A stretch of DNA of 64,000 nucleotides from a virus (Duplodnaviria; Caudoviricetes), in the IMG/VR virus record IMGVR_UViG_3300044730_002040, positions 1-64,000 of that record; one strand, given 5' to 3'. Under the pieces are notes generated by a model. That model was not told the origin of the DNA, made no database searches, and saw only the letters and a list, made by a program, of their open reading frames with translations. The translations under genes and the position numbers were made by a program. Shown here piece after piece: positions 18,109 through 32,073 of the stretch (positions are counted from its first letter, which is position 1; each line of letters begins with the position of its first letter).

Positions 18109-19788
18109 TTATGACTCTTTACGAAGTTCTCTATTATAATGTTCGAACCTGTTATGTTCCGTGGGTGTCATCAACAAGATACCAGGTTTTAATTGACCTT
18201 TTTTGGTGAGTTGATACATGTGACTCATCCACGTTTGTTCAAAAGGATGTGCCCATGTAGTTTCTAAAAACATTTTTTGATTTCCTGTTTTTGAAACAAT
18301 TTGAGGCCAATTACAGTAGTAAATCTCACCTGTGGCATAAGGAACTCCCTTATGTGATAAAATTGAATCAAACTCAAGTTTTGGTGCATTTGGGTCCAAT
18401 CCCATTTGTGGAAGTCTTGGTTTACCAGGCCAAAACTCCTCTCTCACATTTTGAGGAACATTGTACCATGACCATTGAACACTATTGTCACCAAAAAATT
18501 CAGTGTAATTTAATTTTAAAAAATCAAAATTTTCTTTTTTAGCAATTTCTAAAGATTTTGTGTATAAGTTGTCCACTTTTCTATTGAAACCGTTTCTACA
18601 AACTTCTCCATCTTTACAATAAAAAAACATGTCATCTTCGAAGAACAAATAATAATGTAAATCAGTTTTGTCGAAGTGCTCCGCAATGAACTGTCTTCCA
18701 CCACAAATTCCTAAATTACCTTCATCAGGTATAATGTGTTCAAAATCATATTTTTCACAAAGATATTTGTATGCTTCATATGTTGAATTATCTGTAGAAT
18801 TATTCAGAAGGAATTTTTTCGTCTTGTTAAGATAATCTTTATCGTATTCCAAAAACGAATTTATCAAAGTTTCGAATTGTTTCGGACTATTAAATGTGAT
18901 TACATACAACCCAACTTTGTTGATATCAAGATTATTTTTCGATACAACACTTGTTTCATTCTTAACTTCCAAAACATCATTTTTCAAATCTTCAAAAAAC
19001 TTACCAATAAGTCCGTTATATTCAATTTTGAAATAATTTATTAAATCAGAGTGTTTGTAACACATGATACTGAAAATCGATTCTTCAGTTCCCATGTAAC
19101 CTTCTTCAAGAGTAGATTTCAACAATCCATAATAGATAGAGTTTATTGAAGGTATTGTTGATTTTGGTCCACCAAAGAACCCTCCTCTTGCAACTTTATT
19201 TACTTTGGCACCCGCAAGTTCATTTAACTTATTGTATTCAAATCCATGAATTTCTCTTTCTGCATCATAAGGAAAACAAATAAATGAAAACTTGGAAATG
19301 TATTTGGTTAGTTTATCTAATACTTTGTCATGAGTAAAATAACCAGGATGAACAGTATTTGTTAATCCACCATCAATCCAAAACATGTATTCAGAATCAA
19401 ACTTATCCATTATTTTTGCGTCATGTAAAAGAAACACTTTGGACATAACAAGGGGGTTATAATTCTCCAATCTTGCTTGTGTTGAATCTTTCAACCAGCC
19501 CGACAGGTTTTTCCAATCTTCTCTATTTCTTATTTGTTGAATTAACGGATAAAACTCATTGTCAATGAACCAAGAAAGAGGTCGTTCTATGAATTGTGTA
19601 TTTTTTTCACTTCTTCTTTGGAAAACGAATTCCCTCAAAGACGATTCGCCAAATACGATAAGATTTTCCTCCACCTTCAACAACGATTCAAATTTATCCA
19701 AATAATGTTGAAAAGGTCTTGCCCAACCCTCAGAGAGAGATGACCTTCCTATGTCCCATATTCCTGTTACAAGAGTTATATTATTCAT
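18109..19788 (-). CDS. Two-domain glycosyltransferase: HtrL/YibB(WlaTC)-like plus GT-A fold
   Basis: N-domain TLVTGIWDIGR...FWIDGG...GGFFGG...TEE; C-domain LYVITFNSP...GGRQFIAEHF...FFEDDMF. Confidence 0.7.
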   Translation of the reverse strand: MNNITLVTGIWDIGRSSLSEGWARPFQHYLDKFESLLKVEENLIVFGESSLREFVFQRRSEKNTQFIERPLSWFIDNEFYPLIQQIRNREDWKNLSGWLKDSTQARLENYNPLVMSKVFLLHDAKIMDKFDSEYMFWIDGGLTNTVHPGYFTHDKVLDKLTKYISKFSFICFPYDAEREIHGFEYNKLNELAGAKVNKVARGGFFGGPKSTIPSINSIYYGLLKSTLEEGYMGTEESIFSIMCYKHSDLINYFKIEYNGLIGKFFEDLKNDVLEVKNETSVVSKNNLDINKVGLYVITFNSPKQFETLINSFLEYDKDYLNKTKKFLLNNSTDNSTYEAYKYLCEKYDFEHIIPDEGNLGICGGRQFIAEHFDKTDLHYYLFFEDDMFFYCKDGEVCRNGFNRKVDNLYTKSLEIAKKENFDFLKLNYTEFFGDNSVQWSWYNVPQNVREEFWPGKPRLPQMGLDPNAPKLEFDSILSHKGVPYATGEIYYCNWPQIVSKTGNQKMFLETTWAHPFEQTWMSHMYQLTKKGQLKPGILLMTPTEHNRFEHYNRELRKES

Positions 19789-20662
19789 AAATTCTATTAA
19801 ATTCTTCTAATATTCTGAAAAAACTTTTATTTAATGTAAAGAAAGTTTCATCCACTCCACTTGGCGCATTGTCCCTACACCACCAAATATCGAAATGTTT
19901 TCTATAAAACAACTCTTGGTGGTTGAAAAACATGAGACTCATGATGTTTTCTTCGTGGGGTAATTGTTTAATATCTTCGATAACTTTTTTTGCATAATCT
20001 TCAAATAAGTTTACAACTTCATCCCACTTACTTTTGTGTCCCCCAAAAAGACCACCAATGATGTGAATGCTCCTATCATAGTTTTTATACCATTTTGGGT
20101 CTAAGGTTCCTGACCAATAGTTTCTTTCATTCTCTTTACCAATAAGTAAAAACTTATCACCCGTATCTTCAATCATATTTTTTAAAAAATCATTATTGAA
20201 AAGATTGGATTCATAATACCTTCTTTCGAGCTGGTTGTTGGTCAAATATTTCAAAGGGATTAAACCACAATGAGAAAGACCTGCATCAATCCAATAGTAG
20301 TAATCATAACTTTTATCTTCATTCCACCACCAATGAAATTTTGAATATTGAATTTCAATACATCTGTCACCCGCTTTTATTGCACCAACATCCTTATAGG
20401 ATAAAATCAAATCTTTGAATTTTGTTTGAGTTAAATCAAAAACTTTAAATTCCAATTTACTTGGATTGATTTGGTGTGTTTCATAAAAAAAGGTTTTTAG
20501 ATTTTCCAATTCTCTGTCTGATGTGTAACACAAAAAATCGGCTTCAGTCATTTTAAGTAGAGATAATAAACTGTATCTGTAATGACTTACTCTTTGAGGT
20601 CTTCCTCCAAACTCTGTACCATTCAAATCACTGTAGATACAAGTAATAAATTTAACTGACAT
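19781..20662 (-). CDS. HtrL/YibB-like glycosyltransferase
   Basis: YWIDAGL, IIGGLFGG and HEE motifs; paralogous to the N-domain of the downstream gene. Likely start ATG 20662. Confidence 0.6.
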   Translation of the reverse strand: MSVKFITCIYSDLNGTEFGGRPQRVSHYRYSLLSLLKMTEADFLCYTSDRELENLKTFFYETHQINPSKLEFKVFDLTQTKFKDLILSYKDVGAIKAGDRCIEIQYSKFHWWWNEDKSYDYYYWIDAGLSHCGLIPLKYLTNNQLERRYYESNLFNNDFLKNMIEDTGDKFLLIGKENERNYWSGTLDPKWYKNYDRSIHIIGGLFGGHKSKWDEVVNLFEDYAKKVIEDIKQLPHEENIMSLMFFNHQELFYRKHFDIWWCRDNAPSGVDETFFTLNKSFFRILEEFNRIYE

Positions 20663-29800: not shown

Positions 29801-32073
29801 GTAGGTGTTGAAGTTTGCGTGAAAGAAGGCGTTGGTGTTTGAGTTGTACATAACGAGTACGGACTTATTGTTACACCACTTGAATTAAGTTCAACAACAA
29901 CATTATTGTAAGCAAAATAACCTGTCAGGTCTGTGGTGTTAGGTCCGAACACGGAATCATAAAATTCTATATTGTCATCAAAATTTGGTTTATCACCCCA
30001 TATTGTGCCTGTGTCAGTACAATTGCAGGCATCGTAAGATGTGACCCCTGAACAAACAATGAATTGTGTTCTTAGATTTGTTGGTGTGGGTGTTATTGTG
30101 TTAGTTGGTGTTACGGTTTGTGTTGGCGTGTTTGATGGTGTATTTGTTGGAGTTGATGTTTGTGTTGGTGTTGGGCATGGGTAGAAAGAATATGTTAAAT
30201 CGTTTGGAGGACAATCAATTACACAAACAACACAATTAGGGTCTAATAGTTGGTATCTTTGTTTTAACAATCTAAAATTGTGGGCAACCTCAGAGGCATC
30301 CAACGGCTCGGTATACATTCTAAAGGCACTTATATCCCCTATGAAACTGCCCCCGAATATTTCTTCCAATTTTATCTCAGTGGTCAACCCTGAATAAATT
30401 GTATGTGTTAAGTCTTCAGTTGTAAGACACTCAGGGTCCTGTTGATAGGTCATTCCTGAAAGAGAAGGTGGACATCCACCAGATAAAGTAAGGTTGTCAT
30501 GGAGACCTTGAGTACCTCCACCGAGAGAAATATTATACCCCACACCAATTTGTTTTTCTCTTGGTGTATTAAGAAGCCTTGGAATTATTTCCTCAAAATC
30601 AGGAATAATCATAAACGGTCTTCCGTTCACATAAATTATAAAATCACCTAATCTATATTTCTTTTCATCAAACCAAGAATCTTTGAAATGGACAACTTCA
30701 GTTGTTGCGGGTTCAATATCGTCATGGGTTATCGGAGGTTCAATTAAACTCAATGTATTATTGGCTGTAGTAGCCGTATATTCTTTGGAAACAATCAATC
30801 CTAAACCACCCAAGTCTCTCAAATCACATAATTCGAACCACTCTCTTCTTCTGAATACAGCATCTATTTGAACCCAATGTTCCGTTTCGGAGTAAGTGGT
30901 TCCGGTACAAAAATCAAATATACCCCTGGTTGAGCACCACTCAGTTACGGACGTTCCTGTATGATATGTTAATCCTGTCGTACAAGTTCCAGTGGTTTCA
31001 CAACCTCCTGTAATAGTATAAACTTTAACACAAACTCTTGGGTTTCCTGTGTCTCCTGAAAGTCTTATAGACATAGCATTTGAAACACCATCATAAAGTG
31101 GGTCTAATTCAGGTATCGAAGCATAAATTCCACAAGAGCAAGGACATCCACAATTACAATTTGTTGAGGTTACTCCTGAGGGTTGATAAACTGGTATACA
31201 ACTATGAGAGTTTGAAATTCCTGATAAACCACACTCACAAGTATTCATGCAAGTGAGACCCGATGTAACCCTTGTGTATCCTGTATCTTGTTTCGGACTT
31301 CCATCAGCGTAGTGATAGAATTTGTTTTCGGCTCTTGCCCCCATGAAAAAGAAAGTACCTTTGTTATCGGGATATCGGTTATTGAGACCAATGTTGGTTG
31401 TACCTGTCCATCTATATCTCAACATAAATTCTGCAGACCATCCGAGATTAACTCTTTCAGGGAAAATCTGATATTCGTATCCGGCTAATTTGTAAAACCC
31501 TTGGAAAAATCCCCCTTGTAATCTTGCGAAATAACCTACTTCATCTCCATAGGTGGTGTAATCTAAATTATAGGTGTATGAGTTGTCGTTCCAAAGTCTG
31601 TTATTTGTTGTTGTAAAACCAGTGATAGGGTGCATTTTGAAACGTCTATCATACTTGTAACGACTAAACTTGTCATTTATATTTGTATAAAGTCCGGTTG
31701 TAATATCTATTGTCTCTCCTGATATTTGTTTTACAAGTCCGTTGTCAATACCAGTCAAACCTACATTACACAATGTTGATGCTGTTGGACAGAAATTTGG
31801 GTCAATATCATCAGGGTTCCAATAGTTTTCTGATACTATTGTGTCGGAGTCAAAAGAACAAGTTGTTCTCTGACAAAGTGTTGTGGCTGAAGAATCAAAA
31901 TCAAACCTGAAAGGCATTACGTTTCCATCAGTTTGTCCAATGAGAAGCGGAGAAAAAACAACCTCTTGGTTGAATTCTCTTTCGTCAGTTGCCAGACATA
32001 TATCTGAGATTTCTCTGACAGGAACTAAACCATATTTTCTGTAATTGTACTGTAGAATATTCTGATAAGCCAT
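26839..32073 (-). CDS. Large mucin-like virion protein with LamG/concanavalin-A-like domains
   Basis: N-terminal LamG-like region (WVQIDAVF...IYVNG...[15 protein letters not shown]), two Cys-flanked repeats, a long TPT(E/Q/N)T stalk and two C-terminal LamG domains (FYINGSQVG...YNRQL; VYRDG...IRMYDTSL). Likely start ATG 32073 after TATTTAT. Confidence 0.8.
28250..30175 (-). repeat. Thr/Pro-rich low-complexity tandem repeats (TPTETPTQT) with a duplicated ~75-aa module
   Basis: Seen in DNA and translation; module copies at about 29477-29712 and 29846-30080. Confidence 0.9.

Follow-up and report, generated by a model that had tools for sequence, protein, structure and literature searches.

Glycosylation of a virus particle by the virus's own enzymes is already known, and in the passages that the XacN1 study gives to glycosyltransferases, virus-encoded transferases are described as acting on structural proteins in the infected cell both for PBCV-1 Vp54 and for XacN1, a phage whose authors suggested such a role for a homologue of the enzyme considered here (PMC5852040). 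The characterized members of family GT60 named in one account of the Skp1 pathway are polypeptide alpha-N-acetylglucosamine (GlcNAc) transferases, namely Gnt1, which acts on a hydroxyproline of Skp1, and a Trypanosoma cruzi enzyme; in that pathway the GlcNAc is extended by Gal and then by Fuc (PMC6939170). We describe here a GT60-like gene of an uncultured phage, at 21386..22654 on the minus strand of a 64,000-nucleotide stretch of DNA (hereafter the window; positions 1 to 64,000 of IMG/VR record IMGVR_UViG_3300044730_002040), which follows a run of genes for Thr-Pro-rich and collagen-like proteins and leads a set of four glycosyltransferase genes. We think it rather likely that this phage encodes the O-glycosylation of its own appendage proteins. 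What is new is that a GT60-type initiator is paired with stalks of Thr-Pro and collagen-like type, that this pairing is broadly spread among aquatic jumbo phages and that it has a parallel in type VI secretion; literature searches combining GT60 or PF11397 with phage, and others on tail-fiber O-glycosylation and on Pro-Thr virion linkers, returned no account of this pairing.

The genes and the one intergenic element on which the argument turns are as follows.

26839..32073, minus strand: large modular protein, 1786 aa (its open reading frame, ORF, opens at 32199; probable start Met43 at 32073), with seven Thr-Pro tracts at aa 669-711, 782-834, 925-999, 1023-1164, 1185-1247, 1265-1322 and 1523-1559
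26305..26817, minus strand: 170-aa Ser/Thr-rich protein, 41 Ser plus Thr
25054..26259, minus strand: collagen-like fiber protein, 401 aa (Pfam Collagen, 103.3 bits against a cut-off of 27.2)
24525..25052, minus strand: 175-aa protein, with a 39-residue Thr-Pro linker (aa 58-96) between two small domains
22730..24463, minus strand: 577-aa protein, five Thr-Pro tracts (aa 68-116, 195-234, 302-343, 420-443 and 445-474) between small Cys-containing modules
22680..22705, minus strand: terminator-like hairpin of 11 pairs, 5 of them G-C, then a run of T, between the last fiber gene and the GT60-like gene
21386..22654, minus strand: GT60-like glycosyltransferase (PF11397, 229.7 bits against a cut-off of 21, E 9e-68), with a predicted GT-A catalytic domain (aa 1 to about 305) and a predicted beta-sandwich C-terminal domain (aa about 325-415)
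20652..21386, minus strand: GT25-family glycosyltransferase, 244 aa (55.7 bits against a cut-off of 24, 8.1e-15), the proposed extending enzyme
19781..20662, minus strand: small HtrL-like protein, 293 aa from Met19 (ORF opens at 20716)
18109..19788, minus strand: HtrL_YibB-GT2 fusion, 559 aa (HtrL_YibB at aa 3-254, GT2-like at aa about 296-390)

A GT60-like enzyme with the predicted fold of a polypeptide transferase

The initial annotation had placed a GT60-like enzyme directly after the fiber genes, and the profile search bears this out by a wide margin: the PF11397 match falls in two stretches of the profile (positions 2-43 and 97-350), and the protein matches phrog_24687 over its full length (1.7e-164). 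D93, H95 and H230 are invariant in a 41-sequence alignment (as D93-S-H95 plus H230) and are putative metal ligands, with a D-x-H...H spacing reminiscent of the manganese site formed by the metal ligands of GalNAc-T2. Sequence searches of the PDB with the lead enzyme and with the 41-sequence profile found no match. A model built from the same alignment (predicted local distance difference test score, pLDDT, 94.6) was compared with the PDB (VIA), and ranks 1-29 all went to entries for polypeptide GalNAc-transferases (Z 19.1-22.5, root-mean-square deviation 3.2-4.0 A, 257-283 aligned residues, sequence identity 12-15%), followed by generic GT-A polysaccharide enzymes at Z 18.1 or less; Foldseek ranks the folds in the same order, with an E value of about 1e-10 for the GalNAc-transferases. 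The nearest folds are thus those of mucin-type polypeptide transferases, in keeping with the mucin-type system that the initial annotation had put forward and for which it had proposed a structure search.

The C-terminal 118 aa, when folded alone (pLDDT 92.4), resemble fibronectin-III-type sandwiches most, with Z not above 7.5, and Foldseek yields nothing for them that reaches E 0.001. A lectin domain at this end of the enzyme was considered and is not claimed, only generic beta-sandwich matches having been found, and the predicted two-domain architecture bears only a loose likeness to the catalytic-plus-lectin arrangement of the animal enzymes. Compared with family GT27, the phage enzyme shares the predicted catalytic-domain fold, the D-x-H with a distal His and the proposed Thr/Pro-rich acceptors. 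It differs in that a Pfam scan at E 0.01 returns PF11397 only and neither of the GT27 families (Glycos_transf_2 and ricin-B), in that hydropathy reveals no type II membrane anchor, in its low sequence identity, and in a C-terminal domain that is not evidently a ricin-type lectin. By sequence the lead enzyme is a PF11397/GT60 protein and by modeled fold it resembles a polypeptide GalNAc-transferase; it is not a member of GT27. With the protist GT60 enzymes (Dictyostelium and Toxoplasma Gnt1, and the T. cruzi UDP-GlcNAc:polypeptide transferase) it shares the Pfam family and, as with the cytosolic Gnt1, a predicted solubility and a proposed polypeptide hydroxyl as acceptor. Unlike them it is of phage and bacterial origin and carries the extra beta-sandwich domain, its activity is predicted, and in place of a single hydroxyproline we propose long Thr-Pro repeats as its acceptors.

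With regard to the three genes that follow, the GT25 assignment of the initial annotation holds; a GT25 gene also stands after the PF11397 gene in a Verrucomicrobium locus, and the window's GT25 has no counterpart in the corresponding module of phage Xoo-sp13. The two HtrL-like transferases also named there fared differently. The 559-aa fusion is a clear HtrL_YibB protein (63.3 bits against a cut-off of 24.1, 3.5e-17), with a GT2 match of 17.5 bits that lies below its cut-off, and it does not qualify as an equivalog of E. coli YibB, scoring 71.4 bits on TIGR02192 (cut-off 264.9). The 293-aa protein has no Pfam or NCBIfam match and is tied to the family only by a 49-residue BLASTP match to the neighboring HtrL domain (E 8e-5). 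The fusion adjoins the PF11397 gene also in two other loci, L102 and L106. A hydropathy scan of 30 genes, which took in the four transferases, the five fiber-like proteins and the genes of a plus-strand island described below, found no signal peptide and no convincing membrane segment, two interior stretches of 19 residues just reaching the hydrophobicity threshold; all four glycosyltransferases are predicted to be soluble.

The fiber-like genes

Five consecutive, co-directional minus-strand ORFs span 22730-32073, with the four glycosyltransferase genes coming next. This layout is as the initial annotation had it, its description of the five as virion-type being a matter of domain types. It had also credited four of the genes with hundreds of clustered Thr and Ser residues, which is true of three, namely the 1786-aa protein (362 Thr, 122 Ser and 155 Pro, hence 484 Ser plus Thr), the 577-aa protein (122 Thr, 54 Ser and 55 Pro, hence 176) and the collagen-like protein (149), and not of the 175-aa protein, which has only 34. 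Among the 44 other window ORFs of at least 150 aa, Ser plus Thr averages 11.9% (standard deviation 2.1, maximum 17.6%). Across the window, Thr-Pro tracts are confined to the 1786-aa, 577-aa and 175-aa genes.

The 1786-aa protein begins with a 627-aa N-terminal region ahead of the Thr-Pro tracts, the look-alikes of which are viral clusters, some with Laminin_G_3, and it ends in two Laminin_G_3 domains (58.8 and 34.8 bits; Pfam cut-off 27.6) that were hidden in the whole-protein Pfam scan and seen in a later one. At its last LamG domain it matches phrog_8510, a 'virion structural protein', over aa 1585-1784 (E 1.8e-14). The LamG half of the 'LamG/C1q heads' of the initial annotation is thereby borne out. 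The C1q half goes back solely to depositor labels: the 128-aa C-terminal head of the collagen-like protein has no Pfam match at E 1 or better and matches 13 phage records at 30-48% identity in tblastn searches (8 from uncultured phages of one freshwater spring, 4 from Limnohabitans or Acinetobacter phages), three of which are labeled 'cerebellin-1 domain', 'C1q-like' or 'hyaluronidase-like'. The stalk of this protein consists of 66 uninterrupted G-X-Y triplets at aa 48-245 (GTS 24, GSS 22, GID 10, GTD 8 and GST 2), none of which contains proline, so that the X and Y positions are not of the typical proline-rich kind. Bacillus anthracis BclA is a glycosylated collagen-like fiber, and the window protein resembles it in having a Thr-rich G-X-Y stalk and a globular C-terminal head; it differs from BclA in its proline-free triplets and in that its glycosylation is putative. 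Collagen-driven 'tail fiber' PHROG matches were found among the fiber-like proteins, and the 577-aa protein matches phrog_15511 (function unknown). The 170-aa protein, whose N-terminus is like that of the collagen-like protein, has no match in Pfam, PHROG, NCBIfam or cultured phages.

Lake-water contigs break at the repeats at 25450-26450, 23100-23500 and 28200-29800, with many alternative joints. Such breaks at collagen-like and Thr-Pro repeats could reflect variation in repeat length among strains or an assembly artefact.

Linkage of the enzyme to Thr-Pro-rich genes

Peptide patterns of the window enzyme retrieved 464 IMG/VR loci, the best 80 of which, all at least 85% identical, form a close set; a diverse set of 81 loci (37-88% identity) came from a second scan seeded with a distant homologue, and the other ORFs of these loci that lay four or more genes away (n = 1334) served as the control. 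A Thr-Pro-rich gene lies directly upstream on the same strand in 72 of the 79 close loci that have both neighbors visible, and the three close loci with neither a Thr-Pro-rich nor a collagen-like ORF all have fewer than 700 bases upstream. In the diverse set an immediate neighbor is Thr-Pro-rich in 27 of 80 loci, and 29 of 81 have no such gene within 10 kb. Taking both sets together, the immediate neighbor is Thr-Pro-rich in 99/159 cases against 100/1334 control ORFs, an excess of about 8-fold. Counted by lineage cluster, the figures are 19/55 (clusters at 80% identity) and 11/28 (at 70% identity), the clusters being interrelated and the counts not independent. The adjacency persists down to 37-40% enzyme identity. 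The linkage is several-fold above background and far from universal. Next to an enzyme gene that hardly changes, the fiber cassette differs widely from locus to locus in the number and size of its genes. Where Thr-Pro genes are lacking, the enzyme keeps its other partners: the HtrL-GT2 fusion and the small HtrL-like gene, and in many cases also a GT25, a carbamoyltransferase or a second PF11397 gene.

Cultured phages that carry the enzyme

Among cultured phages the enzyme occurs only in XacN1, Xoo-sp13 and the Stenotrophomonas phages CM1 and RAS14, which form one clade by polymerase similarity. The next relative after these four is Ralstonia phage RsoM2USA, which is placed in XacN1's clade in the text of PMC8504454 and in which we found no PF11397 match. 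In Xoo-sp13, which carries PF11397, Thr-Pro tracts 42-517 residues long occur in 12 ORFs and add up to about 2100 residues, as against a single 21-residue tract in RsoM2USA, a genome of similar GC content; the genome-wide Thr-Pro load of the former is about 100-fold that of the latter. This contrast runs in the predicted direction and fits phage-encoded glycosylation of the tracts, although it is a single evolutionary comparison.

XacN1 ORF334 is the homologue in that phage, 47% identical to the window enzyme. At least two glycoproteins are reported from XacN1 virions in the section 'Glycosyltransferases' of its description, and the authors propose two annotated phage transferases, including ORF334, as their makers; two transferases are all that the relevant text counts, the adjoining HtrL-type genes being unrecognized there (PMC5852040). 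In both Xoo-sp13 (L001:11399-16941) and XacN1 (L002:11415-16952) the GT60-like gene is followed by a carbamoyltransferase gene and by genes without annotation that are homologous to those for the small HtrL-like protein and the HtrL-GT2 fusion, so that XacN1 has the same module as the window, the protein comparisons having been made on Xoo-sp13. There the fusion is 41% identical over 560 aa to a 546-aa ORF, and the small HtrL-like protein is 29% identical (E 3e-25) to a 286-aa ORF of the same module. The pairing of a carbamoyltransferase with the PF11397 gene recurs in L102.

PF11397 in bacteria

The PF11397 family comprises 4557 representative protein clusters and is widespread in bacterial genomes. 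A Pro/Thr/Ser scan of bacterial loci proved too noisy in high-GC genomes, and only named cases checked by Pfam or BLAST are used here. A type VI VgrG spike is encoded at a distance of 1-5 kb from the PF11397 gene in nine of 80 bacterial loci (L127, L150, L151, L153, L160, L161, L164, L166 and L179, at about 12-18 kb in each locus). The nine are all from Burkholderiales and probably represent a single orthologous locus, and all nine spikes end in Pro-rich Thr/Ser repeats, for instance (PT)n, (EPPPT)n or (EEPPPS)n. In Ralstonia sp. 25C (L164) the gene sits inside the type VI secretion cluster, between TssA/fimbrial-like genes and VgrG. A Saprospiraceae genome bin (L106:6349-13092, on a 230-kb contig) holds a 71%-identical PF11397 gene with an HtrL-GT2 fusion, next to a sulfotransferase and a secreted Por_Secre_tail protein that bears a Pro/Thr/Ser tract; this locus may be a clue to the host lineage or to an exchange of genes. 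In Sphingobacterium zeae (L140:2171-14723) the PF11397 gene accompanies a radical-SAM enzyme, a C39-peptidase ABC transporter, a ferredoxin, a GT2 and a GT32-like gene, which looks like a modified-peptide locus. A polypeptide acceptor would suit the VgrG, Saprospiraceae and Sphingobacterium cases, which are small in number, were picked by hand and are in part orthologous to one another.

PF11397 genes were also seen on L202 and L212, contigs binned as giant-virus metagenome-assembled genomes, the latter carrying one such gene with three HtrL-like genes.

Proposed mechanism

We propose that during infection the soluble, cytoplasmic PF11397/GT60 enzyme (21386-22654) would put a first sugar, probably an N-acetylhexosamine (HexNAc) from a UDP-sugar, on hydroxyls in the Thr-Pro tracts; the collagen-like stalk, Ser/Thr-rich and proline-free, may be a further acceptor. 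The GT25, the small HtrL-like protein and the HtrL-GT2 fusion would then lengthen the glycan, to which enzymes of a plus-strand island, listed below, perhaps add. The enzyme would act in trans on targets that need no adjacency, the variable fiber cassette merely lying upstream of a conserved enzyme module. As in the Skp1 pathway, the genes at hand are of GT25, GT11 and GT10 type, together with a GDP-sugar pathway; GT25 is a galactosyltransferase family, and GT10 and GT11 are fucosyltransferase families. The acceptor, the sugar donor, the glycan itself, a place in the virion and any gain from stiffening, shielding against proteases or adhesion are inferred, and the stalks would on this proposal be rigid and protease-resistant.

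The phage acceptor may even be hydroxyproline, as it is for Skp1, giving extensin-like glycans, because the complete relatives G001 and G002 each carry three genes for P4H-type 2-oxoglutarate (2OG)-Fe(II) oxygenases (PF13640; in G001 at 28772-29065, 152970-153233 and 162023-162214). The 75.8-kb record that holds the window has no PF13640 gene. Only tentatively, and with more doubt than conviction, we raise the wider idea that PF11397 enzymes initiate a cytoplasmic, mucin-like O-glycosylation code for Pro-Thr/Ser tracts, common to the appendages of contractile injection systems across domains, both jumbo-phage fibers and bacterial type VI VgrG tails.

If the proposal is true, jumbo phages of a very abundant lake-water group cover their appendages with glycans of their own making, and an enzyme family so far characterized only in protists gains a phage role. 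Virion glycosylation, known from chloroviruses and a few actinophages, would extend to a new type of enzyme and substrate, with a bearing on phage adsorption, stability and recognition, and bacteria would have a simple soluble route to mucin-like glycoproteins. The link to type VI spikes would raise a parallel question in bacterial secretion.

Weighing the alternatives

Several points weigh against glycosylation of the phage's own appendages, and the limits given above for the cluster counts, for the contrast between Xoo-sp13 and RsoM2USA and for the Burkholderiales loci belong among them. The system is predicted here from genes and models, in which it differs from the PBCV-1 and mycobacteriophage systems, as it does in the family of its lead enzyme and in proposed acceptors that are long internal Thr-Pro and collagen-like stalks. 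Thr-Pro linkers are common, and unglycosylated, in many proteins. The virion location of the fiber-like proteins, suggested by their domain types, is putative, and tblastn searches against cultured phages found no match for the 1786-aa N-terminal region, the 170-aa protein or the last LamG domain. In 36 of the 55 clusters there is no Thr-Pro-rich immediate neighbor, and in 18 of 55 there is none within 10 kb; co-occurrence of GT60 with such genes in relatives, which the initial annotation had offered as a check, holds as an enrichment over the control ORFs and not as a rule. In the complete relative G001, ten ORFs carry Thr-Pro tracts at about seven places, and two of the ten adjoin the enzyme; in Xoo-sp13 none does. 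With most Thr-Pro genes distant from it, the enzyme, if it acts on them, therefore acts in trans. The hairpin between fiber and enzyme genes ranks first of 22 sites in 14500-32600, and a single operon or co-transcription is therefore not implied. The Sphingobacterium locus is a different context for the family. The glycoproteins of XacN1 are not identified by name in the main text of its description (PMC5852040), and, the window's polymerase being unrelated to that of XacN1 (see below), the XacN1 evidence carries over only through the common enzyme module.

Of the competing explanations, the one that survives best is that the GT60-like enzyme targets other proteins, either host proteins during takeover or phage capsid or tail-tube subunits. 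We consider this unlikely. The enzyme would act in trans under any model, many lineages keep the module with no Thr-Pro gene adjacent, a bacterial homologue stands in a peptide-maturation-like cluster, and mycobacteriophages glycosylate the C-termini of capsid and tail-tube proteins, as described in PMC12619734. Immediate adjacency that is kept down to the lowest enzyme identities, the roughly 100-fold difference in Thr-Pro load between Xoo-sp13 and RsoM2USA, and the Pro-Thr/Ser tails of all nine VgrG neighbors nevertheless argue for the tracts themselves as targets.

Alternatively, the four enzymes and the plus-strand island might remodel a glycan of the host surface (lipopolysaccharide, LPS, capsule or a glycoprotein glycan), for instance to block superinfection, with the Thr-Pro tracts as plain linkers. 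In support, transferase clusters of jumbo phages have been read as making diversified outer polysaccharides (in the relevant text of PMC7824862), HtrL/YibB and GT25 bear LPS-related family names, phage databases label the GT60-like family an auxiliary 'moron' gene, and the clusters with no Thr-Pro gene within 10 kb point the same way. No look-alike of a membrane-spanning priming transferase, flippase, polymerase or ligase was found in the 30 scanned genes, however, functions that could still come from the host; the solved folds nearest to that of the lead enzyme belong without exception to polypeptide transferases, the Thr-Pro linkage stands about 8-fold over the control, and XacN1 virions are reported to hold glycoproteins (PMC5852040). 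Together these make a host-surface role a distinctly poor prospect in our judgment.

A third view holds that the acceptor is something else, such as a small molecule or a free oligosaccharide, and that the neighborhood is a recombination hot spot for variable fiber cassettes. The hypervariable cassette beside a conserved enzyme gene and the terminator-like hairpin between the two are what such a hot spot would leave, and carbamoyltransferase and methyltransferase genes accompany the module in relatives. The existence of virion glycoproteins in XacN1 (PMC5852040) speaks against it, as do the points raised against the two preceding explanations, and we regard it as improbable. Modification of phage DNA, in which the transferases would glycosylate hydroxymethylated bases, is very improbable, even though phage transferases often act on DNA (as stated in PMC5852040 and PMC12619734) and the module lies near the DNA polymerase gene both in the window and in XacN1, because G001, a complete relative, has a thymidylate-synthase-family gene with the score of an ordinary ThyA (TIGR03284, 302.8 bits against a cut-off of 108.35), and the lead-enzyme fold, moreover, matches polypeptide transferases; a search for Tet/JBP families found no gene, with a silent control, and so says little here.

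The source phage and other features of the window

The window is low-GC DNA (about 31-41% GC) from a 75.8-kb IMG/VR record rated about 25% complete. Its genes include those for a tail sheath, a family-B DNA polymerase (PolB), an SNF2 helicase, PhoH and a dUTPase, and this set therefore marks it as a fragment of a large myovirus; the window is about one quarter of the genome of an uncultured lake-water jumbo myophage. Complete relatives, reached through the enzyme gene, measure 321-326 kb, one of them with terminal repeats. At least 92% of the stretch's sampled words are present in 23 runs labeled lake-water metagenome, six of which may be the source DNA. A megablast search of 14000-34000 against cultured phages found no match, and by the PolB marker the lineage has no cultured relative. 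A genome-level relationship of the window phage to XacN1 was considered and rejected: the window's PolB matches only Salinibacter phages among cultured ones, and the XacN1 PolB clade is separate.

Short contigs from one aquatic RNA library match the enzyme genes and the fiber genes, a weak hint of their expression in which DNA carry-over is possible; several bins of the stretch are uncovered and give no reading, and other organisms raise the apparent depth over the collagen repeat.

The remaining features of the window are as follows.

14819-17647, minus strand: family-B DNA polymerase (PolB), with Salinibacter phages at 24% identity as its only cultured-phage matches
34736..51070, plus strand: second glycan island of about 16 kb, with GT1/GT4-like genes, a GT2_5+GT4 fusion, GT2 genes and a TylF methyltransferase gene, and further with GT10-like and GT11 genes, an Fcl-like reductase, a DegT-family enzyme and a GDP-mannose 4,6-dehydratase

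The island, which went unnoticed in the initial annotation, is a probable supplier of activated sugars and of further transferases, and may be linked in function to the fibers. Its Fcl-like reductase scores 178 bits, below the equivalog cut-off, and the best match of its DegT-family enzyme is RfbH-like, likewise below cut-off.

An (A/T)TATTTAT motif lies 10-45 bases upstream of the starts at 24463, 26259, 32073, 7333, 18092, 17647 and 9582. It precedes three fiber genes and the sheath gene, and also the polymerase gene, and hence was not used as evidence. At 11825-13357, on the plus strand, a 510-aa protein carries an Fe/Mn superoxide dismutase domain at aa 37-226, followed by about 280 unmatched residues.

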